Below are positions 49,879 through 62,504 of a stretch of DNA of 64,000 nt, one piece after another. The stretch lies in assembly GCA_963793425.1 (NCBI GenBank), contig CAWCAG010000009.1, forward strand, positions 1,007,037 through 1,071,036, read 5' to 3'. This DNA is from an uncultured cyanobacterium. Its GTDB lineage: Bacteria; Cyanobacteriota; Cyanobacteriia; Cyanobacteriales; CAWCAG01. Each line of letters starts with the position of its first letter. Position 1 is the stretch's first letter. Both the position numbers and the translations under genes were made by a program. Below the pieces are notes generated by a model. It made no database searches. It saw only the letters and a list, made by a program, of their open reading frames with translations, and was not told where the DNA came from.

Positions 49879-50103
49879 AATGTTTCCCCTGATTTAAGCA
49901 AAGTTTAGGCTATCAATATAGCAATTCTCTTACTTGTGAGATACAGCCTGGTTTTCGCTAACGGCTAATGGCTAATGGCTAGTAGCTAGGCAAGGAACAG
50001 AGTTAATAAATCCTTGGGCTTATAAGTATTGTTAAACCAACCAGAAACGACCTTATGCTTAATTGTATAAAGAAAATAGACTTGACAAAATTGAGGTAAT
50101 GGG

Positions 50104-52482
50104 TTGAAAAAAATTTTTGCTCGTATCATTCTTTTCTTCTATACAGTAGGCTTAGGGATTTTATTTACTTTCAATGCCTTACGTAAAAAAGCCCGCGCTA
50201 CCCATAAATATGGCGTAGGAGGAGCAGGAATTGCCAAAATTATTGATCATCCTCAATTCCCGGAACACGAATTTTTTCAGGCAGGCAGGGTTTTTCCTCT
50301 ACGCCTGCGTCATGCCACAGTAACTTATCCTGATGAGGCAGCTAAGGATATTCGTAGCGTTTCGCTTAAGTTTTCTGATCATGAGAAGGAAAGTCCTTTA
50401 GATATTGTCATGAATACTGCCCCCCAAACTTTCCGACATATTGTCGGTTTTTGGCGATTTGCTCTTAGTTCTATTCTGAAAAAGAAGCCTGATGAACCGG
50501 TTAGTTCTTTAGGATTAAAGGAATACTGTAATTATGACTCTCATCAGCGGCTAATTTTTACAACCGCTTTACGTCGCGCCCCTGAGAGCTTTACCCAAGT
50601 TTATTATCATTCTCAACTTGTCAACTATTTTAAGGCTGAAGATGGCAAAATCCGTTATGTAAAATATCGCTTAATACCAGAAAATCGGGGGAAAGAGTCT
50701 GGTTTGCAAAGTGAAGAAGATGCCCAAACTCCTTGGTTACAAAAACGTTATCCTCAAGAAAAGAAGCGCCAAGATTATTTAAGTTTAGAATATATTGAAA
50801 GGGCCTCTAAAGAACCGATTATCTACCACCTACAACTACGTCTCCATGAAGATACAGGGGATGTAAAAGAGATTTGTCGCCAGGATCGGCCATGGAGTGA
50901 GGAGACTTCCCCTTGGTTAGACTTAGCCACCGTTACTATTCAGCGTCCGCTTACTTTCCAAGAAACAGAAAAACTCACCTTTAATATTGGGACTCAACCT
51001 CCATCTTTGGGTATAGTAGATGGCAAGTCTATCTATGACCCTAACTCCATTAATTATGCGCGTACTCGCGTTTATGGATTTTCTCAAGCAGTTCGCTACA
51101 TTATCTACAAAATGAGTAAGTTCAAAAATCCTAAAGAAGAGTTTGTTTATCATGGGCAACCGGGTAAAGATTTACCCCGTTTTGACTTTAATAAAAAGTT
51201 GCCTAAACGAGTAGATGTCACCAAGAAATATAAGGCACAGGTAGGTTTAAATCTTCTCCCTGCTGTTAAAATTCTTAAATTTATTCCTATATTAGGTATT
51301 GTTGGTAGCGAGAAAATGATGGGGGCAAAAGCACCTAAATGGATGCCCACAAATTTAACTCGCTGTCGTTTAGATCGAGATAGTGATGAATTTTTTGTTG
51401 AACGCCGCCTTAATGGTTTCAATCCCGGCAAAATTAATCTTGAAAAGGATGCCAGTAAGGAGTGGCAATATTACGTTAGATACGATTGTAGTAAGTATGA
51501 AGTTGAGCCGGCAGGAATTTTACCCCAGGTAACAGAGGCACGCTTTCAGTTAATAGATGAAGAATTAAAAGTTCACTCTATTGAATATACTTTGCAAAAG
51601 GAAACAAAAACCGTTTTCCCTAGCGAAAAAGATTGGAGTTTTGCTAAACGCCTTTTCCGCAGTGCCGAGTTTGTTTTCCAAGAAATTCAATCCCATTTAG
51701 GGCGTACCCATATGAATATGGATCAGTACGCTATGGCTTTTTATCGCAATATTGTTGATAATCCGATCAAGTCTCTTTTAGAACCCCATTTTGAAGGTTT
51801 AATTAGTATTGATAAAAATGGTGCAACTTCAATTCTCGGTTACGAAGGATTCATCCCTCAAGCTTCTGTCCTCACCAGCGATGACGTACATCGCCTTTTA
51901 ATTGAAGAGGTGAGTCAGCTAAGTTACAAATGGACACCAGAGGTTATTAAACTCCCAGATTATATCAAGAATAACTATTTCGACCCTGCCGCTAGTGCCA
52001 TGTGGGGAATTATTGAAGAATATGTGGGAGAGTTTTTCGCTCAAAACGAAAATGCTATCAAACATTATTGGTCAGAAGTTGTCGGAATGTCTGAGGATTT
52101 GGTTAAACATTCTATCCTCGAATCCACTTCAAAAACCTTAGCAGTTAATAATATAAATGAGCTTAAACAATTATGCGTTTATGTTATTTACCACAACACT
52201 TTTGTCCATTCCTGGGTTAATAATAAACAATACGATGATGGTGGCGATGTAGAGTATACACCTTTCGGTTTATGGGATGAGAATCATCCTAGTTATGATG
52301 TTAAAACTGAAGCGAAAAGACAGGCGAAACAAACGATTTTGATGTGGACTCTTTCTAATGTCCGTTACAACCCCATAATGGATGTAGGACCAGGAAATTT
52401 AAAAGAGTTACTTTGGCAGCACCGTCAAGAAATTGAACCAGGTATTGCCCTTGCTGATTTGATGATGAGTATTCATATTTAA
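50104..52482 (+). CDS. Catalase-related hemoprotein (allene-oxide-synthase-like) fused to a mini-lipoxygenase
   Basis: The N-terminal half has catalase-type distal RATHKYGVGGAG, FPLRLRHATV, and proximal-Tyr block RTRVYGFSQAVR. The C-terminal half has lipoxygenase iron ligands SHLGRTH (H-x4-H), VHSWVN (H-x3-N) and a C-terminal Ile (..MMSIHI*). TTG start; the N-terminus is hydrophobic. Confidence 0.8.
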   Translation: MKKIFARIILFFYTVGLGILFTFNALRKKARATHKYGVGGAGIAKIIDHPQFPEHEFFQAGRVFPLRLRHATVTYPDEAAKDIRSVSLKFSDHEKESPLDIVMNTAPQTFRHIVGFWRFALSSILKKKPDEPVSSLGLKEYCNYDSHQRLIFTTALRRAPESFTQVYYHSQLVNYFKAEDGKIRYVKYRLIPENRGKESGLQSEEDAQTPWLQKRYPQEKKRQDYLSLEYIERASKEPIIYHLQLRLHEDTGDVKEICRQDRPWSEETSPWLDLATVTIQRPLTFQETEKLTFNIGTQPPSLGIVDGKSIYDPNSINYARTRVYGFSQAVRYIIYKMSKFKNPKEEFVYHGQPGKDLPRFDFNKKLPKRVDVTKKYKAQVGLNLLPAVKILKFIPILGIVGSEKMMGAKAPKWMPTNLTRCRLDRDSDEFFVERRLNGFNPGKINLEKDASKEWQYYVRYDCSKYEVEPAGILPQVTEARFQLIDEELKVHSIEYTLQKETKTVFPSEKDWSFAKRLFRSAEFVFQEIQSHLGRTHMNMDQYAMAFYRNIVDNPIKSLLEPHFEGLISIDKNGATSILGYEGFIPQASVLTSDDVHRLLIEEVSQLSYKWTPEVIKLPDYIKNNYFDPAASAMWGIIEEYVGEFFAQNENAIKHYWSEVVGMSEDLVKHSILESTSKTLAVNNINELKQLCVYVIYHNTFVHSWVNNKQYDDGGDVEYTPFGLWDENHPSYDVKTEAKRQAKQTILMWTLSNVRYNPIMDVGPGNLKELLWQHRQEIEPGIALADLMMSIHI

Positions 52483-52593
52483 ACTACACTTCACAGGAAA
52501 AATTCGTGATTAAGCTTAGACGAACAGAAACGCACTGTTAAAAAAAATAAGCAGGAGGGAATCGCCTTTCCCGTAATTTCTCGCAAAACGGAA

Positions 52594-52627
52594 TAAAAAA
52601 ATCTCCCTAGTTTAGAACTGGGAGATT
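52594..52627 (-). terminator. Intrinsic terminator downstream of the RNA-binding protein gene
   Basis: The minus strand reads ATCTCCCAG-loop-CTAGGGAGAT followed by TTTTTTTATT. Confidence 0.6.
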
Positions 52628-52724
52628 TATAAGGGTTGAGGTTAGAGAAGTCAGTTGAACTTCTCTAAAAGTAGTTAGCTACTTGGTTCCTCGAAGAGTT
52701 GATTTTAAAATTCAACAAGCATTT

Positions 52725-53009
52725 CTAGAAACGGTTGTTTCGACGACCGCCGCCACCTCTATTTTCTTCACGAGGTTTAGCTTTATTAACTTTTAGGACA
52801 CGATCCATCCACTCTGCGCCATCTAGAGCGCTAATGGCTTCATCTTCGTTGGCTTCGGATTCCATCTCGACGAAAGCAAACCCGCGCATACGACCTGTTT
52901 CGCGATCGCTAGGAATATGAACCCGCTTAACGGTTCCATACTCGGCAAAGACTTCATTTAAGTCTTCTTGCTTAACTTCGTAAGATAAATTGCCTACATA
53001 AATCGACAT
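52725..53009 (-). CDS. RRM-type RNA-binding protein with glycine/arginine tail
   Basis: RNP2 IYVGNL and RNP1 RGFAFVEM. C-terminal tail RGGGGRRNNRF. Confidence 0.95.
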   Translation of the reverse strand: MSIYVGNLSYEVKQEDLNEVFAEYGTVKRVHIPSDRETGRMRGFAFVEMESEANEDEAISALDGAEWMDRVLKVNKAKPREENRGGGGRRNNRF

Positions 53010-53376
53010 ATTTTGTTTGTCTTCTCAGTGAGTGTTGTGTTTAGAGAGACAGAATTATTCAGAAAGCAATAGCTCAATACTTTACGGAAAAAACCTTTAG
53101 ATACTGGATGCAAACTTAATCGTCAATAATTATGATTCTCAGTCTAAATAGTAACACTTTTATCGATGAAAACACACCATTCTATTTTTTCTAATGATTT
53201 GTTTAGATTTTGAGTGCTGAAAAAAAAATATAGTTCTCTGTTTTCGCTATCCAAAACTACAGCGACGTAAAGGTTTCGCTGTGGCGTGATCGGAGCAAAT
53301 AGCGATCGCGAGATGAACCATAACGATCCCCCGTGAACCGAAACTATAATCGTAAGAAAGCTTTGGAGAGAAATTG

Positions 53377-53601
53377 ATGACATTGCAGGAGTTGCAAAAG
53401 CAAGCATTACAGTTGTCAATTGGCAATCGCTGGCGTTTAGTTCAATCCTTGCTTGGCTCAATTAAACAAGAAACCTTACTATTTGGTTCTCCAAACCTAA
53501 ATATGAATTTGGTTACTGGGCTTGTTCCCTGGACTCAAGGCTTAATCGGCACTATTTGGCTAAGCCCAGAAGAACTAACAAAATCCTATATAGCAAAGTA
53601 G
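53377..53601 (+). CDS. Antitoxin-like addiction-module component, copy A (C-terminally divergent/truncated)
   Basis: MTLQELQKQALQLSIGNRWRLVQSLLGSIKQETL... is near-identical to the first ~35 aa of ORF 55883. It lacks the C-terminal domain of copy B and has no toxin partner. Confidence 0.55.
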   Translation: MTLQELQKQALQLSIGNRWRLVQSLLGSIKQETLLFGSPNLNMNLVTGLVPWTQGLIGTIWLSPEELTKSYIAK

Positions 53602-53613
53602 CCCTAGACAAAG

Positions 53614-54267
53614 ATGAAGCCAATTTTGAACATTGAAGGCTTGTGTAGTGAGGCTGCCAAGCTTGCTGAAATAGAATCTTTATACAACGAGCCTACAATT
53701 TACGGTGTAACAGATGGAAAAGCTGTTGGAACTTATTTTGAACATAAGTTTAAAGCTTATTTATCTGAAAACTACAGTTATCAACCAGGTAATTCAGCTT
53801 CAGGCATTGATATTCCTAGTCTTGAAGTTGATATAAAAGTAACAAGTATTAAACAGCCGCAATCATCTTGTCCTTTCAAGTCAGCAACTCAAAAAGTATT
53901 TGGACTAGGACATCATCTTTTAGTTTTTGTTTATGAGAAATATGATGATCATGCCAATAAAACTGGAAGGTTAAATATGCAGCACACAATTTTCATAGAT
54001 AAAAGTAGAACAGCAGATTTTCAGACAACTAAAGGCATCATAGACATTCTCAATCGAGATGGTAATAAAGATGACATAATTGCTTTTATAATGGAGAGAA
54101 ATTTGCCTGTTGATGACATTGGTGCAAATCAGTTAGGTGAAAGAATATTAGAATCGCCTCCAAATCTGGGCTACTTAACAATTTCCAATGCTCTTCAATG
54201 GAGATTGCAATACAGTCGAGTTATTCAGCAAGCTGGTAGTATTTCAGGCATAATTAGAGTTCGATAA
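53614..54267 (+). CDS. Putative type II restriction endonuclease (PD-(D/E)XK)
   Basis: Candidate catalytic core SGIDIPSLEVDIKVTS (D...D/E-x-K). It ends 3 nt before the methyltransferase gene on the same strand. Confidence 0.55.
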   Translation: MKPILNIEGLCSEAAKLAEIESLYNEPTIYGVTDGKAVGTYFEHKFKAYLSENYSYQPGNSASGIDIPSLEVDIKVTSIKQPQSSCPFKSATQKVFGLGHHLLVFVYEKYDDHANKTGRLNMQHTIFIDKSRTADFQTTKGIIDILNRDGNKDDIIAFIMERNLPVDDIGANQLGERILESPPNLGYLTISNALQWRLQYSRVIQQAGSISGIIRVR

Positions 54268-54270
54268 ATA

Positions 54271-55788
54271 ATGGTGAAAAAAATATCAGATAAGTGGCAG
54301 TTTGGCGACTTTCAAACTCCTAATAATCTTGCTAACAAAGTAGTAAAAATTCTCAGGTTAAATCATAAAATAGCACCACAAGTTATTATTGAGCCATGCT
54401 GCGGTCAAGGAGTATTTGTTAAAGTAGCTCTCAAAGAGTTTAAAAAAGCAAAAATAATTGGCTTAGATATTAATGAAAAGTATGTTGAAGAAGCAATAAA
54501 TTCTATATCTAAATACCCGAATTCAGAAAATGCTATTGTAGAAAAGTCTGACTTTTTTAACACTGATTGGCAGGATCTAATTTCTCAACAATTGGGTTAT
54601 ATTTTAATAATTGGTAATCCTCCTTGGGTTACAAGCAGTGAACTAAGTGTTCTTAATAGTCAAAATCTTCCGGCTAAATCGAACTTTCATAATAGGCGAG
54701 GTATTGAAGCTATAACAGGTTCAGGAAACTTTGATATTTCTGAGTGGATGCTTCTACAACAGGTCGAATGGTTATCAAAAAGAGAAGGTACTATAGCTAC
54801 TTTATGCAAGTTCTCTGTGGCTAGAAAGGTCATGCTTAAAGTGAGAAAAAAGTTAGGAAGTAGATTTTCTACTTGTGTTTATTTAATAGATGCAAAAGCC
54901 TATTTCGGAGTATCAGTAGAAGCTTGCTTATTTGTTTTATCAACTAATAAAAATGAGGTTGATTGCGAAGTTTATGGAAATTTAGAAGCGGAGAAGCCAT
55001 CTTATACAATTGGACAAAGAGATGGGCTAATGCTCAAGGATACAGTTAAATATGAGAAGTGGAGACATTTATTAGGTCAAAATTTGAGATATGTATGGCG
55101 TTCTGGAGTTAAACACGACTGTTCTAAAATAATGGAACTAGAACGAGTTAATGATACTTTATTCCAAAATGGATTAGGAGAAAAATATATTTTAGAAGAA
55201 GACTACTTATATCCTCTTTTGAAAAGCTCAGATATTGGCAATGGTAGAACTGATTATTACCGGAAACTTGTTTTAATTACCCAGCAGGCAGTCGGAGAAG
55301 ATACAAGCCTTATTCAACATAAAGCACCTCAAACCTGGCAATATTTACTTGAACATAAAAAGTTCTTTGAAAATAGAAAAAGTTCAATTTATAAAAATAA
55401 GCCATCATATTCTATTTTTGGCGTTGGCCCTTATTCTTTCAAAAGCTGGAAAGTGGCAATTTCAGGATTTTATAAAAGATTAAATTTTTGTCTTATTCAT
55501 CCTTTAGATGGAAAACCAGTTATATTTGATGATACTGTTAATTTTTTATCTTTTGATACTGAAGAAGAAGCAAAGTTTATATTTAACCTGGTTACATCGC
55601 CTCCTTCGTTAGAGTTTCTCGATTATATGATTTTTTGGGATGAAAAAAGACCAATAACTATAGATATTCTAAAGCGATTATCCCTTAAAGCTGTTGCTAA
55701 AGAATTGGGTGTTTTGGAAGAATATCTACATTGGGCTAAGGCTATTCAGATTAATGCTACAGGTCAGTTAGAGTTGGGGTTAGCATGA
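54271..55788 (+). CDS. N6-adenine DNA methyltransferase, gamma-type motif order
   Basis: AdoMet motif I IIEPCCGQGVFV precedes catalytic motif IV IIGNPPWVTS. A large C-terminal region probably acts as the target-recognition domain. Confidence 0.8.
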   Translation: MVKKISDKWQFGDFQTPNNLANKVVKILRLNHKIAPQVIIEPCCGQGVFVKVALKEFKKAKIIGLDINEKYVEEAINSISKYPNSENAIVEKSDFFNTDWQDLISQQLGYILIIGNPPWVTSSELSVLNSQNLPAKSNFHNRRGIEAITGSGNFDISEWMLLQQVEWLSKREGTIATLCKFSVARKVMLKVRKKLGSRFSTCVYLIDAKAYFGVSVEACLFVLSTNKNEVDCEVYGNLEAEKPSYTIGQRDGLMLKDTVKYEKWRHLLGQNLRYVWRSGVKHDCSKIMELERVNDTLFQNGLGEKYILEEDYLYPLLKSSDIGNGRTDYYRKLVLITQQAVGEDTSLIQHKAPQTWQYLLEHKKFFENRKSSIYKNKPSYSIFGVGPYSFKSWKVAISGFYKRLNFCLIHPLDGKPVIFDDTVNFLSFDTEEEAKFIFNLVTSPPSLEFLDYMIFWDEKRPITIDILKRLSLKAVAKELGVLEEYLHWAKAIQINATGQLELGLA

Positions 55789-55882
55789 TTAGTGAATAGG
55801 AGACTAAATGCAAGTGTTCGTAACTATCGTGCCTTGAGAAGAAACCGTTTACAATAATCCCAAAAGCTGTGGAGAGGAACTG

Positions 55883-56383
55883 ATGACATTACAGGAATTA
55901 CAAAATCAGGTATTACAATTGTCAGTTGGAGATCGCTGGCATTTAGTTCAATCCTTGCTTGGCTCAATTAAACAAGAAACCCTATCATTGAATTCCTCAG
56001 ACTCAAGTGGCAATGAAATTTCAGGACTTAATCCTTGGAGGCAAAGCTTAATAGGCTTAATTCAGCCAAGCCCAGAAAACCAGACCACTCCCTATGACCT
56101 AACTTTAGAACTAAGTGATCAGGTTTTTGCTGCTATTATGCAACAAGCCCAAGCAGTTGGTGTTTCTCCGGAAAGATTAGCAACAACTTTACTTGAGAAG
56201 GAATTTAGTCAAGCTTTTAAGTTATTTAAAAGTGAGGCTGAAAAAGGTGCAGCACGAGCAAGATTTGAGGCTCATTTTGGTACATTAGAATCAAGTGATT
56301 TAATGAGTTTAGATAATGAGAGTATCGATGCTGATTTAGCTAGAGAATATGCCAGTAAGCATGAAGAAGAGTATGCTTCTTGA
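55883..56383 (+). CDS. Antitoxin-like addiction-module component, copy B (full length, partner of PIN toxin)
   Basis: N-terminus MTLQELQNQVLQLSVGDRWHLVQSLLGSIKQETL, with an acidic C-terminus. Its 3' end overlaps the PIN gene start. Confidence 0.65.
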   Translation: MTLQELQNQVLQLSVGDRWHLVQSLLGSIKQETLSLNSSDSSGNEISGLNPWRQSLIGLIQPSPENQTTPYDLTLELSDQVFAAIMQQAQAVGVSPERLATTLLEKEFSQAFKLFKSEAEKGAARARFEAHFGTLESSDLMSLDNESIDADLAREYASKHEEEYAS

Positions 56384-56774
56384 TACATCTGGACTTCTCT
56401 GTCTGCAATTTTTAACTGAACCATTTCATACCCAAGCTTGTACCGAGTATCAGAAGGCAACTAATAGATTAACTCATAATTACATCATTGCTGAGTATGT
56501 AGCACTTGCTAATGCGAGACGCTTTTCGCGATCTTCTGTTCTTAATTTTATTGTTGATTTGTTAAGTAATCCAGACATAGAAACTGTGTGGATTGATGAA
56601 TCTTTAAATAGAGAAGCAGTTGAGCTATTGATTGCACGACCAGACAAATCTTATTCTCTGTGTGATGCTGTTAGCTTCGTTTTGATGCGTCAACGTGGAA
56701 TTACTAAGGCACTGACAACTGACCGTCATTTTGAGCAAGAAGGTTTTGTTAGACTCTTGCAGTTATCTATTTGA
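56361..56774 (+). CDS. vapC: PIN-domain ribonuclease toxin (VapC-like)
   Basis: Acidic quartet context: LLDTSGL, IIAEYVAL, SLCDAVSF, TTDRHFEQ. The start is ATG 56361 or 56373, overlapping the antitoxin stop. Confidence 0.75.
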   Translation: MKKSMLLDTSGLLCLQFLTEPFHTQACTEYQKATNRLTHNYIIAEYVALANARRFSRSSVLNFIVDLLSNPDIETVWIDESLNREAVELLIARPDKSYSLCDAVSFVLMRQRGITKALTTDRHFEQEGFVRLLQLSI

Positions 56775-56854
56775 GCAATTCTCTTTCCTATCGATTTATA
56801 CAAACTCCATAAAGCTATACTCATAGATGAAATAGCTGATCATAAACGCTTCCC

Positions 56855-58093
56855 ATGGAAAATGAGGCTCGAAGTATTCCTTCTTGGCTAGAAGAAAGTC
56901 CAGGCTCAAAAGTTAAGCCTCCCGTTCAAACAAAAATTCAAGAACTACCATTTGATAAATTAACCTGGGAGAATTTTGAAAGACTATGCTTACGTTTAGT
57001 CAGGAAAGAAGCAAACGTAGAGCATTGTCAACTGTATGGTCAACGAGGCGATAATCAAGAGGGCATTGATATCTATGCGAGATTGCTGGATAGAGACAAA
57101 TATACTGTCTATCAGTGTAAACGAGAGAAGAACTTTGGCCCTGCAAAAATCAAATCAGCAGTCGATAAATTCCTAAAGGGTAAATGGGCTAAACGAACAA
57201 ACTGTTTCGTATTATGCACTCAAGAAAGCTTAAGACACAAAAACCGTGCTGATGAATTTAAAAGCCAAAGTGAAAAGCTCAGAAATGAAGGAATTTCTTT
57301 CATTGCCTGGGATGAGGATTATCTATCTAACACGCTCAAAAATTATCCTGATATTGTAGAAGACTTCTTTGGTAAGCCTTGGGTAAATGCTTTCTGTAGT
57401 AAGACACAAGTAGATAATGTCAGCAACGAATCAGAAAAAGATATTTGTGTTGAGGAATATCAATTATGGCTTGCGAAGAAAACATCTTCCTTTGTGATTC
57501 CGACGTTAGGTAAAACATTTTCTATAGCTACTGATTGGTTGCCGAGAAAAGCACTTTGCATTCAAGCAGATAAAGAAAGTTTTGATGTAGAACTAATTAC
57601 AGAACTATATAAACGTTGCCTTATAATAGGCAATTCTGCTAGTGGTAAAAGTACGCTTGTCCGAAGATTGGCAAACTGTTTGACTCAGAAAAGAAAGAAA
57701 GTTTTGCTAGTACGTCTGCCAGATGTACTTCGTTTATATCAGCAAGGAAAGACCTTTACTGATGCTATTTTAGATTGCTCTATTGATGGTTCAAATATTG
57801 ACCATTCTTTATTACGATTAGCGCTTAATAATCCTGACTACTTGTTAGCAGATGGTTTAGATGAATGTAATACAGATAGAGCAGACATTGCTAGAAAATT
57901 GATGTCTTGGGCGGATGGTCATTCAACAACTAGAGTTATAGTAGCCAGTCGAAAAAATTGTATACCGGAATCGTTATCGAATTGGCCACAATTGGAATTA
58001 CAGCAACTCAATAAAGAGGAGATTCAGAAATTCTTTTCAAAGATTTTGAGTGCTGCTTCAGAAGAAAAATCGAAGCTTGAGGAAAAGTTATAG
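56855..58093 (+). CDS. Mrr-type restriction-nuclease domain + NACHT/STAND P-loop NTPase, N-terminal part of a split NLR-like gene
   Basis: Nuclease block WENFERLCLRLV...GDNQEGIDIYA...YTVYQCK. Walker A IIGNSASGKSTLV, Walker B DYLLADGLDECN, and RVIVASRK. It ends at TAG 58091-93. Confidence 0.75.
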   Translation: MENEARSIPSWLEESPGSKVKPPVQTKIQELPFDKLTWENFERLCLRLVRKEANVEHCQLYGQRGDNQEGIDIYARLLDRDKYTVYQCKREKNFGPAKIKSAVDKFLKGKWAKRTNCFVLCTQESLRHKNRADEFKSQSEKLRNEGISFIAWDEDYLSNTLKNYPDIVEDFFGKPWVNAFCSKTQVDNVSNESEKDICVEEYQLWLAKKTSSFVIPTLGKTFSIATDWLPRKALCIQADKESFDVELITELYKRCLIIGNSASGKSTLVRRLANCLTQKRKKVLLVRLPDVLRLYQQGKTFTDAILDCSIDGSNIDHSLLRLALNNPDYLLADGLDECNTDRADIARKLMSWADGHSTTRVIVASRKNCIPESLSNWPQLELQQLNKEEIQKFFSKILSAASEEKSKLEEKL

Positions 58094-58267
58094 CCTTTCT
58101 CGGACTGATGAGGTACATTTCCACTAGCCACTAGCCAAAGCGCAAAAACCAGGCTGTACCTCACTAGCCTAAGAATCGCTATAGCACTAATTGAAACAAT
58201 TTTCCAAAACGAAAAAACATTATCTCTAGCACAGGAAAGTCCTCTCCTAGCTGGTTTTATTATTAGA

Positions 58268-60115
58268 TTGGTTTTATCAGACGTAGATATCACTCAGAAG
58301 AATCGAACTGAACTTTATGAGGCGATAGTTAATCTCGCTTATGGTCATTCACCGGAGTTTAGGAAGTCTATTGAGCTTAGCAAGCGCAGTGCAAAGAGGT
58401 TTTTTTGTGTAGCTGGTTGGAAGCTAATGCAGAAACCTTCAATAACTGAAGATGAACTTGTAGAAGAATTAGTTCAAGAGCTTCAAACAATGGGTTACAC
58501 TCTACAAGAAGCTGAAAATGAGACTGAGAAAGGCATTCAATTTTGGGAAGATAAACGTATTTTTTGTCGCTCCACTTTTGGACATAAAGATAGGGTCAGT
58601 TTTGTGCATTTATCTTTGTGCGAATATGCAGCAGGTAAATATGTTTCTCAACTAAACGACACGGCTTTGCAAAATTGGCTTAAGGAAGCTAAGAGAGATA
58701 CTAGATGGAAAGAAACAATATGTTTTGCATCCAGCTTAGGTATGGGAGAAAAGGTTGTCAGATGCTTACTTGATTTAAACGATTCAAGAGATTTAGATTT
58801 CCCTGAAATAATACTAGCTTTAGCAGTCACTATAGAGAACAAAAACATTCCAGCAGAGTTGTTAGAGACTTTAATATCTCGAATCCAACCTCAACTAGAG
58901 TCATCTGAGCCTGACAATATCTTTGAAATTACAGTAGGACTATTATCTATATTGCCAAAAGCCTCTAACTTGATTGGTGATTTAGCTAAAACTTTACTTG
59001 AAAATGACAATTTTCATACTCGTATAGCTGCTACAAGGCTTATTTTAGCTTGTAAAGAGGAAAACATTTGTCTAGATAAATTAACTCAGTTAATCAAAGA
59101 GATTTTATCAAATCCTATACCTAATATGAGATTATCATTTATGATTGGAGACAAAGGAAGCAAAAAATATGAGTGGGATATTAGAAATGAGATTATATTT
59201 TCTGGTTGTCAATTACTTCTGAAAAAGCGGCAAAATATTGAGACTCATAACCAGATATTGTTATTAATTTCTGAATGTTCTTTCATCGGTGCAGGTATAG
59301 TAGACTCAGTGAAGGAATTGTTGTCAAACAGCGCATCAACAAAGTTGCAGACAGAAGACGCAAAAGAATGGATTTCTTTTCTGCAAAAGCTCACACCTTC
59401 TGATAGTTTTCCTAAAAAACTAAAACTAGAATCTCCCAAAGACATCTTGAGGAAACTTAAAATCTCAGAGAGAGCTAGATTGGCTGATAAGACATTTCTA
59501 GAATCAATTTTTCGCATAGTTGGAGTACCCCAAGAACACGAAAAGCTTAAATATTCTTCTGTTGGAATAGAATTAGTTGCTTTAGGAACTCTTTTTAAGG
59601 GAATGGGGTTGTGGCACATACCAATAACTGCATGGAATATTTTGAGTAATTGTGATGACCCTGAAGCTGTTGATACTGTTCTTAAGGGTATGATTATTGC
59701 TTTAGACATTGATCAAGAGAGGCTTATGGCTGAAGCATCAAAGGTTCTAAATGATATAGAACGTTTCTTTTCGTTTGACTTAAATTCGGTTAAATCTGTA
59801 CTACAAAAGGACGAATATTCAGAAAGATTTTTTGAAACACTGGATTACTTATCCAGAGAGATTTATCAAGACAAAAAAGCCTCACTTGCTATGTACCGCC
59901 ATCTACCAAAAGTGCCTGTTATATACAAGTGGCATCTTGTTACTAATATTAGACTCTCTTCAAAAGTTTTAGTACGCGCCTTTGAGCATCCGTCAGCAGC
60001 AATTTCCCAAAACGCAGCTCTATTAGTAAAGTATGGAGCGGGAGGTGAAGAGGCAGTGAGATTGGCAAGAAAACTTGTAGGAGAGGAGGAATGGGAATCT
60101 TTTGAAAAAATGTAA
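58268..60115 (+). CDS. C-terminal part of the split NLR-like gene: NACHT helical/winged-helix region + helical-repeat sensor
   Basis: Same frame as 56855..58093. The frame is open from 58112 (..LRIAIALIETIFQNEKTLSLAQESPLLAGFIIRL..). FVHLSLCEYAAGKY is a typical NACHT winged-helix motif. It is followed by ~450 aa of leucine-rich helical repeats. Confidence 0.65.
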   Translation: MVLSDVDITQKNRTELYEAIVNLAYGHSPEFRKSIELSKRSAKRFFCVAGWKLMQKPSITEDELVEELVQELQTMGYTLQEAENETEKGIQFWEDKRIFCRSTFGHKDRVSFVHLSLCEYAAGKYVSQLNDTALQNWLKEAKRDTRWKETICFASSLGMGEKVVRCLLDLNDSRDLDFPEIILALAVTIENKNIPAELLETLISRIQPQLESSEPDNIFEITVGLLSILPKASNLIGDLAKTLLENDNFHTRIAATRLILACKEENICLDKLTQLIKEILSNPIPNMRLSFMIGDKGSKKYEWDIRNEIIFSGCQLLLKKRQNIETHNQILLLISECSFIGAGIVDSVKELLSNSASTKLQTEDAKEWISFLQKLTPSDSFPKKLKLESPKDILRKLKISERARLADKTFLESIFRIVGVPQEHEKLKYSSVGIELVALGTLFKGMGLWHIPITAWNILSNCDDPEAVDTVLKGMIIALDIDQERLMAEASKVLNDIERFFSFDLNSVKSVLQKDEYSERFFETLDYLSREIYQDKKASLAMYRHLPKVPVIYKWHLVTNIRLSSKVLVRAFEHPSAAISQNAALLVKYGAGGEEAVRLARKLVGEEEWESFEKM

Positions 60116-60197
60116 AAAAGAATAATTCCTTTATAAAAAATGTAGAGGCATAAAAAACACCTCTACACTCAACTTCCAAATAATTAAACTACTGAAA

Positions 60198-60483
60198 TTA
60201 GGTCAAAGCCATCGCGGGTTCTTCCCAACGTTCCACTGCCTTACCAATCACAGCTAACTCTTTAACCAAACGCTCAAAACGCTCTGGAGTTAGAGATTGT
60301 GGCCCATCAGACATCGCCTTAGCAGGGTTGGGATGCACCTCAATCATTAATGAATCTGTCCCTGCTGCGATACCTACGGTGGGCTTTGCCTACGCAGCTT
60401 TAGCCATCGGAGGAACATACTCCCATTTCCCTGTACCGTGGCTAGGATCGATCATAATTGGTAGGTGAGAAGCACGATCGCAA
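60198..60483 (-). pseudogene. Diverged duplicate of the 3' end of the DAHP synthase gene
   Basis: Collinear with 61205-61468. It encodes ...[10 protein letters not shown] with its own stop (60198-60200). It carries a ~25-nt replacement where the genuine gene has GCGATCGC, and it ends at CGATCGC (60475-81). A copy of the terminator hairpin lies beside it at 60141-60167. Confidence 0.8.
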
Positions 60484-60556
60484 AGCATCTCAACTCAGAA
60501 AAATCGCATTCTTGGCAGATAAGAAACCAAAATAAAAGAATCGCACCTTAAGCGAG

Positions 60557-60658
60557 GATGAAATTACCGGACTTGGTCTTTGGACGCAAAGCTTAATTGG
60601 TGTACTTAAGCCAAACTCAGAAAATTAAACTGCCCCCTATGATGTAACTTTAGAACTA
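60557..60658 (+). pseudogene. Fragment of the antitoxin-like gene, copy C
   Basis: Reads ..DEITGLGLWTQSLIGVLKPNSEN*TAPYDVTLELI, matching the middle of copy B (NEISGLNPWRQSLIGLIQPSPENQTTPYDLTLELS) but with an internal stop and no 5' part. Confidence 0.6.
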
Positions 60659-60723
60659 ATAAGATTTAAGTAATCTTAAAACATATAGAATACAGTCAAC
60701 TCTCCTATGCGGAGTTTTTATTT

Positions 60724-60933
60724 ATGACCTTAACTGAAATGCTTCCTGTAATCCGGCAGCTTTCTATAGTAGAAAAGCTTAAATTGATTCGGATTCTTGC
60801 AGAAGACCTAGAAGCGGCAGAGGATATTTCTCCTCTAGAACCGTTTAAGACCTATGACCTGCCAACTCCTTACAATAGCTTTGGATCTGGTGCTGTATTG
60901 ATGCAGGCAGTAGAGTCAGTAAACCAACCTTAA
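60724..60933 (+). CDS. Small hypothetical protein (69 aa), possibly antitoxin-like
   Basis: MTLTEMLPVIRQLSIVEKLKLIRILAEDLEAAED... ATG start, followed 5 nt later by the protease-like ORF. Confidence 0.4.
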   Translation: MTLTEMLPVIRQLSIVEKLKLIRILAEDLEAAEDISPLEPFKTYDLPTPYNSFGSGAVLMQAVESVNQP

Positions 60934-60938
60934 TTGTA

Positions 60939-61106
60939 ATGCGTTTTCGCTACTCTACTACCGATTCTTCCCAAAACGAGTTCGATAGCCTGCCACGAGT
61001 TTCAATCATTCTTCGTCGAGAAGGACACACTGTAGAAGCTCTCGGACTTGTTGATAGTGGTGCAACCATTAATGTTTTGCCCTATGAAATTGGTCTTCAA
61101 TTCTAA
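60939..61106 (+). pseudogene. Truncated retropepsin-like aspartyl protease ORF (55 codons)
   Basis: My translation: MRFRYSTTDSSQNEFDSLPRVSIILRREGHTVEALGLVDSGATINVLPYEIGLQF*. The DSGA active-site motif is present. The ORF is cut off where the mini copy of the aroF 3' end begins (61103). Confidence 0.5.
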
Positions 61107-61145
61107 GTTAAAGCCATCAGATGAGAAGCGCGATCGCAATATAAG

Positions 61146-61183
61146 ACAAAAAATGTAGAGGCATCAAAAAACACCTCTACACT
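61146..61183 (-). terminator. Intrinsic terminator of the DAHP synthase gene (duplicated at 60133-60168)
   Basis: Stem TGTAGAGG (61154-61) / CCTCTACA (61174-81), with a T6 run following on the minus strand. Confidence 0.7.
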
Positions 61184-61204
61184 TAAATTTTAAACTATCC
61201 AAGC

Positions 61205-62263
61205 CTAAGTTAAAGCCATCGCTGGCTCTTCCCAACGTTCTACTGCCTTACCAATCACAGCTAACTCCTTCACCAAACGGTCAAAACGTTCTGGAGTGAG
61301 AGATTGTGGCCCATCAGACATGGCTTTGGCGGGGTTGGGGTGAACTTCGAGCATTAATGAATCTGTTCCGGCTGCGATCGCCGCTTTAGCCATCGGGGGA
61401 ACATATTCCCATTTCCCAGTACCATGACTGGGATCAATCATGATGGGGAGGTGAGTTAGCGATCGCAACACAGGAATTGCGGCTAAATCTAAGGTATTGC
61501 GGGCATATTTACGGTCGAAGGTACGAATACCCCGTTCACAAAGAATTACATTAGGATTACCTGCTGCTAGGATATATTCTGCTGCCATTAATAAATCATC
61601 AATAGTTGCTGCCATACCCCTTTTGAGGAGGACTGGCTTATCTTGCGCCCCTACCTTCTTTAGCAAGGCGAAGTTTTGCATATTCCGCGCCCCAATTTGC
61701 ACCACATCGGCAACAGCGGAGATTTTTTCTACATCCGCAGTATCCATCACTTCTGTGATGATGCCTAAGCCTGTTGCTTCCCTCGCTGCTGCCAAGAAAT
61801 GTAAAGCACTTTCCCCATGACCTTGGAAAGCATAGGGAGAAGTGCGAGGCTTGTAAGCGCCACCCCGCAAGAATTTTGCCCCCGCAGCTTTAACTCGCTT
61901 AGCTGTTTCAACAATCATCTCCTCATTCTCCACAGAACAAGGGCCAGCCACTAAAACAATGGGATGATTTTCACTGAAGCTAACCTTACCATTCGGGGTA
62001 GAAACCACCACTTCACTAGGTTGCCCGTGGCGAAACTCCCGGCTAGCACGTTTGTAGGGGCGTTCTACTCGTAAAACCCTTTCAATCCAAGGGCTAACTT
62101 CCTGTAGTTGTAAAGGGTCTAAAGAAGCAGTATCTCCTACTAAACCAATCACAACTTTATGTTGACCAACAATTTTTTCTGGGGTTAAGCCCCAATCTGT
62201 AAATTCGGTGCTAACACGACTAATTTCCTCTTCTGGGGAACCAACTTTCATGACAACGATCAT
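61205..62263 (-). CDS. aroF: 3-deoxy-7-phosphoheptulonate (DAHP) synthase, type I-beta with N-terminal regulatory domain
   Basis: GAYKPRTSPYAFQG and the IDPSHG block. The N-terminal ~70-aa ferredoxin-like extension begins MIVVMKVGS. Confidence 0.9.
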   Translation of the reverse strand: MIVVMKVGSPEEEISRVSTEFTDWGLTPEKIVGQHKVVIGLVGDTASLDPLQLQEVSPWIERVLRVERPYKRASREFRHGQPSEVVVSTPNGKVSFSENHPIVLVAGPCSVENEEMIVETAKRVKAAGAKFLRGGAYKPRTSPYAFQGHGESALHFLAAAREATGLGIITEVMDTADVEKISAVADVVQIGARNMQNFALLKKVGAQDKPVLLKRGMAATIDDLLMAAEYILAAGNPNVILCERGIRTFDRKYARNTLDLAAIPVLRSLTHLPIMIDPSHGTGKWEYVPPMAKAAIAAGTDSLMLEVHPNPAKAMSDGPQSLTPERFDRLVKELAVIGKAVERWEEPAMALT

Positions 62264-62504
62264 CTATACAATCTCCGTATGCCCAGCAGTTTTAACCCTG
62301 GGAACAATAAATTAAGAATCGACAATTGAGAAAAATATTTTTAGTAACCTGCTTATGAGGTTCGCTTAACTATTTAGATATTTAATCAAACCGAGCATAA
62401 AGTTGCGATAAAAAACACAAAACTTTGATTGTCTTATTGATTTGGGTAACTTCCCTAAAATATTTTTAACCTAATTTTGGTTAATTTTCTTCCCTTGACT
62501 TGGC

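Follow-up and report, generated by a model that had tools for sequence, protein, structure and literature searches.

A small defence island with HIP1-bounded scars beside aroF in a Spirulinaceae cyanobacterium, and its possible assembly without an integrase

How does a block of conflict genes come to lie beside a housekeeping gene when nothing in it resembles a recombination enzyme? The question is raised by a region of ~7.8 kb found 3′ of the 3-deoxy-D-arabino-heptulosonate-7-phosphate (DAHP) synthase gene aroF in an uncultured Spirulinaceae cyanobacterium, which we analysed within a 64,000-nucleotide stretch of contig CAWCAG010000009.1 (the window, whose positions are used throughout). A sequence-only reading had proposed that the region, framed by aroF and by the RNA-binding protein gene rbp, is a conflict-system island. 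Open reading frame (ORF) listing and family scans show that the features it described are real and correctly placed, with two exceptions: the intactness of a NACHT gene and the nature of a small aroF copy. The block is a genuine, compact and horizontally acquired defence/addiction island of known module types. We consider it probable that it constitutes a small chromosomal defence island at the aroF 3′ flank of one Spirulinaceae lineage, a mosaic of independently mobile modules whose assembly we infer to have been integrase-free. The framing genes, both identified as claimed, and the possible left boundary are as follows.

52725–53009, minus strand: rbp, encoding an RRM RNA-binding protein, the left flanking housekeeping gene (Pfam RRM_1, 1.4e-21)
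53302–53309, unstranded: last HIP1 site (GCGATCGC) ahead of a HIP1-free block and possible left boundary (from HIP1/CGATCG positions)
61205–62263, minus strand: aroF, the right flanking gene, whose 3′ 252 nt form the A1 repeat segment, from the HIP1 site at 61459 (NF009933, 1.9e-212)

The block is accessory and was horizontally acquired, as synteny, composition and the presence of its parts elsewhere, on plasmids or in mobile settings, indicate. The gene order rpsO-DUF3464-aroF is conserved across cyanobacteria and nothing 3′ of aroF is. The sister-lineage locus L094 (aroF 98% identical at the amino acid level) carries a convergent aldo-keto reductase gene 125 nt after aroF, and L095 (93%) a convergent RNase PH gene 64 nt after it; the island is absent from both and the aroF terminator hairpin is kept in both. 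In 20 more distant cyanobacterial loci neither rbp nor any island gene was found 3′ of aroF. The segment 53357–60134 has a GC content of 0.356; no other 6.8 kb of the window is as low (mean 0.398, sd 0.016). All 30 HIP1 sites of the window fall outside this segment, within which 3.2 would be expected. GC content at third codon positions (GC3) is 0.22 in the restriction-modification (R-M) genes and 0.24–0.25 in the toxin–antitoxin (TA) genes, below the entire background range of 0.257–0.446; the antitoxin-type module AT1 (0.387) and the PDC-M52 genes (0.30–0.34) are host-like. Comparison of the rbp-aroF gene order and of composition with the flanks had been suggested at the outset as the means of refuting an acquired island. 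Having found neither a conserved order nor flank-like composition, we regard that interpretation as supported.

The window derives from a metagenome-assembled genome (MAG) and some related contigs break within a 91-nt element that interrupts one island gene (see below), which would fit a chimeric join of unrelated contigs made during assembly or binning. This is almost certainly not the explanation. A single order, running from a lipoxygenase (LOX) gene through aroF and beyond, occurs at 99.3–100% identity in at least five independent assemblies (MAGs at NCBI and Logan assemblies, representing different samples), and the contig breaks are accounted for by the insert being present in some alleles and absent from others. 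Because the arrangement recurs in this way, the locus is not an artefact.

A PADLOC run over the region, as had been advised, matched REase_II, MTase_II and PDC-M52A/B. The first two matches correspond to a Type II R-M cassette.

53614–54267, plus strand: Type II restriction endonuclease (REase) of the NspV family, whose prototype cuts TTCGAA (PADLOC REase_II, 1.4e-96; NF052465, 3.4e-104; PF27258 NspV)
54271–55788, plus strand: cognate N6-adenine DNA methyltransferase (MTase) with an NPPW motif (PADLOC MTase_II, 5.2e-163; Pfam N6_Mtase, 2e-08)

The endonuclease scores 346.6 bits against the NCBIfam model NF052465 (curated cutoff 290), and the Pfam NspV assignment is also recorded in public annotation. 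The methyltransferase scores 34.4 bits against Pfam N6_Mtase (cutoff 20.4), with the NPPW motif evident in its translation. From the original description of a PD-(D/E)XK nuclease paired with an NPPW adenine methyltransferase, the Type II R-M identity, the coordinates and the NPPW motif stand; a single-sequence AlphaFold2 (AF2) model of the endonuclease reached a predicted local distance difference test (pLDDT) score of 33, and a PDB sequence search returned no match. As in NspV/AsuII-type Type IIP systems (PF27258, NF052465), an endonuclease above the equivalog cutoff is followed by an adjacent and co-oriented N6-adenine methyltransferase gene. The same R-then-M order is found on plasmids of Nostoc, Aeromonas, Klebsiella and lactobacilli, at 49–60% identity. 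Unlike those systems, the island cassette is bracketed by diverged 233-nt antitoxin-gene repeats, and its specificity is a predicted one. The plasmid homologs have no antitoxin gene upstream, and on this basis a role for AT1 as regulator of the R-M cassette was ruled out.

The methyltransferase would guard host DNA and the endonuclease would cut incoming unmodified DNA, the predicted target being, from family membership, probably TTCGAA. The 64 kb contain no TTCGAA site (Markov expectation 4.7, base-composition expectation 20.8), which implies that the host chromosome gives the endonuclease few or no targets. Avoidance of TTCGAA was rejected as evidence that the cassette is active, since loci of Nostocales, Microcoleus and the L094 lineage also nearly lack the site, and the window is devoid of at least 12 palindromes. 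As a separate observation, these six-base palindromes with zero occurrences in 64 kb, among them GGTACC (8.8 expected), ATGCAT (5.9), TTCGAA (4.7) and CTCGAG (4.6), suggest pressure from many restriction systems.

Antitoxin modules lie on either side of the cassette and recur near aroF, one of them joined to a toxin gene.

53377–53601, plus strand: AT1, a short antitoxin-type module corresponding to the N-terminal two-fifths of AT2 (repeat D1; weak TIGR02574 match)
55883–56383, plus strand: AT2, an antitoxin of 166 aa whose gene overlaps the PIN toxin gene (weak TIGR02574 'addiction module component' match, 0.0031, below cutoff)
56349–56774, plus strand: PIN-domain VapC toxin, likely starting at ATG 56373 (PDB VapC20 5wzf, E=7.1e-9)
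60547–60659, plus strand: AT3, a pseudogene fragment from the middle of an AT2-like antitoxin, with an in-frame TAA (repeat D3, 77%)

A phmmer search of the PDB aligned residues 11–136 of the toxin with Mycobacterium tuberculosis VapC20 (5wzf), including the acidic motifs lDTS, aE, cDA and tDrhF. This bears out the PIN toxin proposed for 55883–56774, and the antitoxin gene is indeed upstream and overlapping (by 11–35 nt). The ORF has no Pfam, PADLOC or NCBIfam match even at E≤10. It shares with VapBC20 a similar toxin length, the aligned acidic motifs (E=7e-9) and the overlapping upstream antitoxin gene; it differs in that AT2 is, as tested, unrelated to VapB20 (weak TIGR02574) and in that the toxin escapes the Pfam PIN models. 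The depositors of PDB 5wzf name VapC20 a 23S rRNA-specific endonuclease. A VapBC-type arrangement, in which a PIN RNase toxin would be restrained by the overlapping upstream antitoxin, may be predicted from the gene layout. We observed that the VapC-like ORF (56349–56774) is uncalled in public MAG annotations (L081, L082 and L085) despite its significant PDB match, which looks like an annotation gap.

All three copies of the antitoxin module that had been noticed in the sequence are present (53357–53589, 55863–56095 and 60547–60659). Repeat D1 (53357–53589 against 55863–56095) is 76% identical overall and 87.7% over its first 122 nt, with AT1 and AT2 differing at eight synonymous and ten non-synonymous codons; repeat D3 (56002–56114 against 60547–60659) is 77% identical. 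Two antisense ORFs on the minus strand (53144–53461 and 55824–55967) have a common N-terminus, MSQARIELNASD, which they owe only to their position opposite the repeated module, and are probably not genes.

The remaining PADLOC matches lie directly before aroF in the window.

60724–60933, plus strand: PDC-M52A-like small antitoxin-type gene (PADLOC PDC-M52A, 2.6e-4 over 29 residues; weak VapB15 and Unstab_antitox matches)
60939–61106, plus strand: PDC-M52B-like gene, ending prematurely after ~55 of 139 residues, where it meets A3, the third aroF copy (PADLOC PDC-M52B, 1.2e-10, profile positions 6–58 of 139)

The second ORF had rightly been called truncated; the 'retropepsin' label given to it was drawn from a DSGA motif only. 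The two genes lie side by side in one orientation, and each matches its model in the PADLOC candidate system PDC-M52. They differ from it in the truncation of B, such that the pair is not full length, and this PDC-M52-like pair is decayed. Sequence searches of the PDB with M52B, as with AT2, returned nothing informative. To our knowledge, the PDC-M52 candidate system has not been validated.

The largest gene of the island is interrupted in this genome.

56855–58090, plus strand: 5′ part of a Mrr-nuclease/NACHT STAND gene, with Mrr_cat at residues 34–123 and NACHT at residues 254–400 (Pfam)
58091–58181, unstranded: 91-nt insertion resembling a miniature inverted-repeat transposable element (MITE), with three in-frame stops and the TA duplicated at 58089–58090 and 58182–58183 (absent from L081 and L082, present in L085)
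58184–60115, plus strand: 3′ part of the NACHT gene, with winged-helix/helical domains and HEAT-like sensor repeats (AF2 pLDDT 83, Foldseek)

It had been described as one intact gene (56855–60115). The domains are confirmed (ORF 56855–58093 scores 23.1 bits for Mrr_cat, cutoff 21, and 37.1 for NACHT, cutoff 26.7) and the intactness is not: the insert carries TAG at 58091 and TGA TGA at 58106–58111. The two NACHT ORFs lie in one frame, the stops fall within 21 nt and the next start codon comes only at 58268. L081 and L082 lack window bases 58091–58183 and encode a single intact protein of 1055 aa; the alleles differ by 93 nt, the empty one holding a single TA. Removing 58091–58183 in silico gives a 1055-aa ORF that equals the intact allele (P0001) except for T585S. 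The insert is also present in L085, and two Logan contigs stop inside it. Its ends form imperfect inverted repeats of ~27 nt (20 of 27 matching). The 91-nt element is a MITE-like insertion, polymorphic in the population, which knocks out the NACHT gene here.

TA-duplicating MITEs derive from IS630/Tc1-mariner elements. The insert resembles them in its size (~90 nt), its non-coding sequence, its imperfect terminal inverted repeats, the TA duplication and the presence/absence polymorphism, and differs in two respects: the only other copy observed is a diverged and partial one, at 49919–49978, and no partner transposase was identified. A metagenome scan with the MITE core gave two matches, of a 20-mer only and at chance level. 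A hammerhead ribozyme considered at CTGATGAG within the insert was ruled out by an Rfam search of 52400–62400 (E≤1), which returned no match.

The AF2 model of the intact NACHT allele, built with 24 homologs (pLDDT 83, predicted template modelling score 0.69), begins with an alpha/beta domain, continues with a P-loop NTPase that includes a winged-helix region and ends in an all-helical HEAT-like C-terminus. The best solved structures in a Foldseek search were NLRC4 (2.8e-10), NOD2, NLRP3, NLRP7 and NLRP14, along with the bacterial Avs4 (1.5e-6), while the C-terminus matched HEAT-repeat scaffolds including PP2A-A. In the Mrr-type domain we recognised D72 and Q87-C-K89, with D72, Q87 and K89 (pattern Q87-x-K89) invariant in 25 of 25 sequences. 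The predicted layout is tripartite, with an N-terminal Mrr effector, a NACHT NTPase and a C-terminal repeat sensor. A predicted Mrr-like REase effector is needed for the toxicity of bNACHT25 (D48A), which senses infection via DnaJ (bioRxiv 10.1101/2022.07.19.500537; PMC12169576). The island protein resembles bNACHT25 (Kibby et al.) in its tripartite architecture, N-terminal Mrr-type nuclease, D...QxK signature and NACHT NTPase; it differs in matching no curated bNACHT or Avs model, in having its own HEAT-like C-terminal sensor and in its MITE-like interruption. By analogy, the gene would specify a single-gene, NLR-like STAND sensor acting like bNACHT25 or Avs: the HEAT-like repeats would detect a signal of infection, the NACHT NTPase would oligomerise and the Mrr-type nuclease would be unleashed.

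Homologs of the NACHT protein are up to 56% identical and mostly cyanobacterial. Their genes adjoin those for TrbI, a relaxase, ParE/RelB, RelB-PIN or other STAND proteins, and never aroF. A separate pair of NACHT (344 aa) and NCH2 (296 aa) genes was seen among housekeeping genes of the sister lineage (L095 16698–18700; L096 8669–10671), ~5.6–7.6 kb 3′ of aroF.

What scars did the assembly of these modules leave? The clearest lie on the aroF side, where the 3′ end of the gene and its terminator are repeated.

60135–60197, minus strand: T2, a duplicated aroF terminator hairpin with leader (alignment to T1, L094 and L095)
60198–60483, minus strand: A2, a displaced aroF 3′ end of 84 codons (30 synonymous and 3 non-synonymous codon differences from A1)
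60372–60392, minus strand: 21-nt SDR5-like insert TAGGCAAAGCCCACCGTAGGT splitting a HIP1 site between its third and fourth bases (alignment; unique in the window)
60466–60481, minus strand: 5′ boundary of A2, a degenerate HIP1 site and junction J (J motif GCGATCGYGCTTCTCA)
61103–61137, minus strand: A3, an internally deleted third aroF 3′ copy made up of the J motif, TCT and the last 16 nt of aroF (sequence)
61148–61204, minus strand: T1, the functional aroF terminator (terminator scan 61184–61151; conserved in L094 and L095)

Two extra aroF 3′ ends, each with its terminator, had been proposed. The large one holds (60135–60483 against 61148–61456, 86–88% over ~330 nt). The small one (61103–61139) is aroF-derived, but has no terminator of its own and amounts to a 35-nt internally deleted remnant (61103–61137). 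Homology between A1 and A2 begins at the HIP1 site in aroF (61459) and stops right past the terminator, whose hairpin is identical in T1 and T2. The two differ at 34 of 252 positions (13.5%), of which 32 are third codon positions. Because these differences are near-exclusively synonymous, both copies evolved inside functional genes, and on this codon pattern one of the two is shown to come from another functional aroF allele. A2 is 88–90% identical to the sister lineages (L094/L095) and ~74% to Nostocales, which rules out the Nostocales origin hinted at by the SDR5-like insert. The informative sites give no statistical support for taking A1 as native.

The direct orientation of the copies, ~1 kb apart, and their identical terminator hairpins would also suit a tandem duplication that arose in place at the aroF 3′ region, through slippage or unequal crossing-over, and then drifted, among conflict genes that are long-standing residents. 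However, the almost wholly synonymous divergence is unlike the decay of a non-functional duplicate, the closest relatives are without the island, and the block is low in GC and GC3 and devoid of HIP1 sites. We regard such a duplication as very unlikely.

A3 consists of the motif GCGATCGCGCTTCTCA, TCT and aroF's final 16 nt. It follows directly on T1 and adjoins the point at which the M52B-like ORF is cut off. The J motif has just two occurrences, one in A3 and the other marking the 5′ boundary of A2 (chance expectation 0.01), and because of this restriction A3 is best read, from its sequence, as a deletion derivative of an A2-type copy. The 21-mer lies inside A2 in the context GCG–21 nt–ATCGC, and no further copies were found in 1.6 Mb of sequence searched. 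SDR5 is a 21-nt repeat that inserts between bases 3 and 4 of HIP1 (PMC4390886; bioRxiv 10.64898/2026.06.24.733823) and has been reported only from heterocystous cyanobacteria (Elhai 2015, PMC4390886). The insert has the length and HIP1 insertion position described for SDR5, but it sits outside the heterocystous clade.

A second lineage offers a parallel. In Microcoleus sp. S13_C3 (L012, 10883–12191) a 95-nt aroF fragment with GGGCGATCGC on both sides lies 1.18 kb 3′ of aroF. It comes after a gene for an Uma2 putative restriction endonuclease (PADLOC PDC-S03), and beyond it are a MazF/DUF2281 pair and then a DUF790 gene. The Microcoleus locus is independent of the Spirulinaceae island. The chance of the 5′ boundaries of both lineages falling on CGATCG is ~0.015 x 0.038, a post hoc figure.

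Rearrangements at HIP1 have precedents. A HIP1-flanked illegitimate deletion at the smt locus is attributed to Gupta 1993 in the account given by bioRxiv 10.64898/2026.06.24.733823, and HIP1 has been tied to the site-specific recombination of plasmids and, in a Chi-like manner, to the stimulation of homologous recombination (PMC4390886; bioRxiv 10.64898/2026.06.24.733823). The island breakpoints likewise coincide with GCGATCGC. They differ from the smt case in that the joins marked by HIP1 duplicate and capture DNA and do not delete it.

Taken together, these features suggest that homologous and HIP1-microhomology recombination put the block together, with no dedicated recombinase involved. 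Host recombination would have acted on the ~350-bp aroF-3′/terminator homology, and possibly on the common antitoxin modules too; further joins would have formed at short HIP1 (GCGATCGC) microhomologies, with deletions after joining. We favour such a host-mediated route because of the foreign-allele aroF end, the HIP1 boundaries, the Microcoleus parallel and the lack of a recombinase domain. On the last point the sequence-only reading, which saw no integrase, recombinase or transposase inside the block, was right: Pfam, PADLOC and NCBIfam scans of all substantial ORFs found no integrase, excisionase or transposase domain, and the called genes of near-identical sister contigs include no integrase either.

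The same repeats invite a comparison with tRNA/tmRNA-type genomic islands, which integrate at gene 3′ ends with duplication of the attachment (att) site. The block could be the remnant of one or more integrase-mediated elements targeting the aroF 3′ end, in which a replacement end plus terminator served as attP, A2 and A3 were left by successive integrations, and the integrase and most cargo were later deleted. As in such islands, the direct repeats consist of the 3′ end and terminator of a conserved gene that is itself kept intact, one copy coming from a foreign functional allele as a replacement end would; three copies suggest that the site was reused, and the identical non-aroF junction motif in A2 and A3 could be the arm of one element. 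However, neither the window region nor the near-identical contigs encode an integrase, excisionase or transposase. The repeats enclose only ~680 bp (the M52 remnant, 60484–61102), leaving the main R-M, TA and NACHT cargo beyond A2. Moreover, the ~350-bp homology, which starts at HIP1, is far longer than att cores usually are, and the Microcoleus 95-nt fragment is HIP1-bounded on both sides with no integrase in the ORFs examined. On balance we think this origin improbable.

Host-mediated assembly might be extended to a more general proposal, that in filamentous cyanobacteria conflict genes are captured recurrently, and without a recombinase, at the aroF 3′ flank, with the HIP1 palindrome as the joining point. 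Incoming cyanobacterial DNA carrying an aroF 3′ end would recombine by gene homology, and its far end would be sealed at HIP1 microhomologies. The proposal is prompted by the presence of HIP1-bounded aroF fragments near nuclease or toxin genes in two lineages (Spirulinaceae and Microcoleus L012) and by an SDR5-like 21-mer inside HIP1 outside the heterocystous clade. It is tentative, and we would put it among the unlikely readings.

Several observations weigh against an acquired defence island built by host recombination at aroF. The low-GC cargo (53.4–60.1 kb) lies outside the aroF-repeat segment, such that the repeats do not directly explain its arrival. A1 and A2 do not form a reciprocal-crossover mosaic, their informative sites interleaving without a switch point and identifying neither copy as native. 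The figure for HIP1 breakpoints was calculated post hoc from two lineages only. Only the aroF side can be cleanly compared between lineages. On the other side, rbp adjoins aroF in no relative, leaving no two-sided empty site, and a test from the rbp side through its lipoxygenase neighbour found that the sister-lineage ortholog is not beside rbp. Since neither the rbp-aroF nor the LOX-rbp adjacency is conserved, the left boundary is set by composition and HIP1 only, and the polarity of 'insertion' is inferred. As for the modules, avoidance of TTCGAA is clade-wide and uninformative on the activity of the cassette. The NACHT gene, one of the three main systems, is broken in this genome and only mildly atypical in composition (GC3 0.27–0.28, z about -1.2). 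Its product finds no match among the curated Avs and bNACHT models of PADLOC and NCBIfam (the intact allele was also run through PADLOC), the marginal scores being 0.0017 for mad8 and 19.5 bits for DS8, whose cutoff is 790.

Defence islands of the type described by Makarova and core-gene-flanked hotspots, such as the 'core defence hotspots' of Pseudomonas aeruginosa, are the closest general comparators. They too hold unrelated defence and TA modules between conserved core genes, with atypical composition and often no recombinase, and their content varies among relatives. The aroF island differs in being ~7.8 kb with explicit scars (the aroF 3′ copies, HIP1-bounded joins and antitoxin repeats) and in showing one content variant only in the available strains.

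To the left of rbp, the window encodes a protein of 792 aa (50104–52482, plus strand) with homologs that contain catalase-related and lipoxygenase domains; coral allene-oxide-synthase/lipoxygenase fusion proteins are among its distant matches.

What, then, does the locus mean for these organisms? R-M systems, TA pairs and NACHT proteins abound in cyanobacteria, and by itself the island is a case of routine defence-gene clustering, an ordinary bacterial defence island. It also provides a natural record of a defence gene switched off by a tiny transposon in one population, with the intact and broken alleles preserved in sister assemblies. Its scars, namely a functional-looking foreign aroF end, HIP1 sites at the breakpoints and antitoxin repeats, hint at island growth without an integrase. 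What HIP1 does has been an open question for 30 years, and recent studies point to a part in recombination and DNA uptake. If the aroF 3′ flank does act as a capture site, HIP1 would have a concrete part in building genomic islands, and HIP1-bounded aroF fragments are the one lead here that deserves systematic pursuit.

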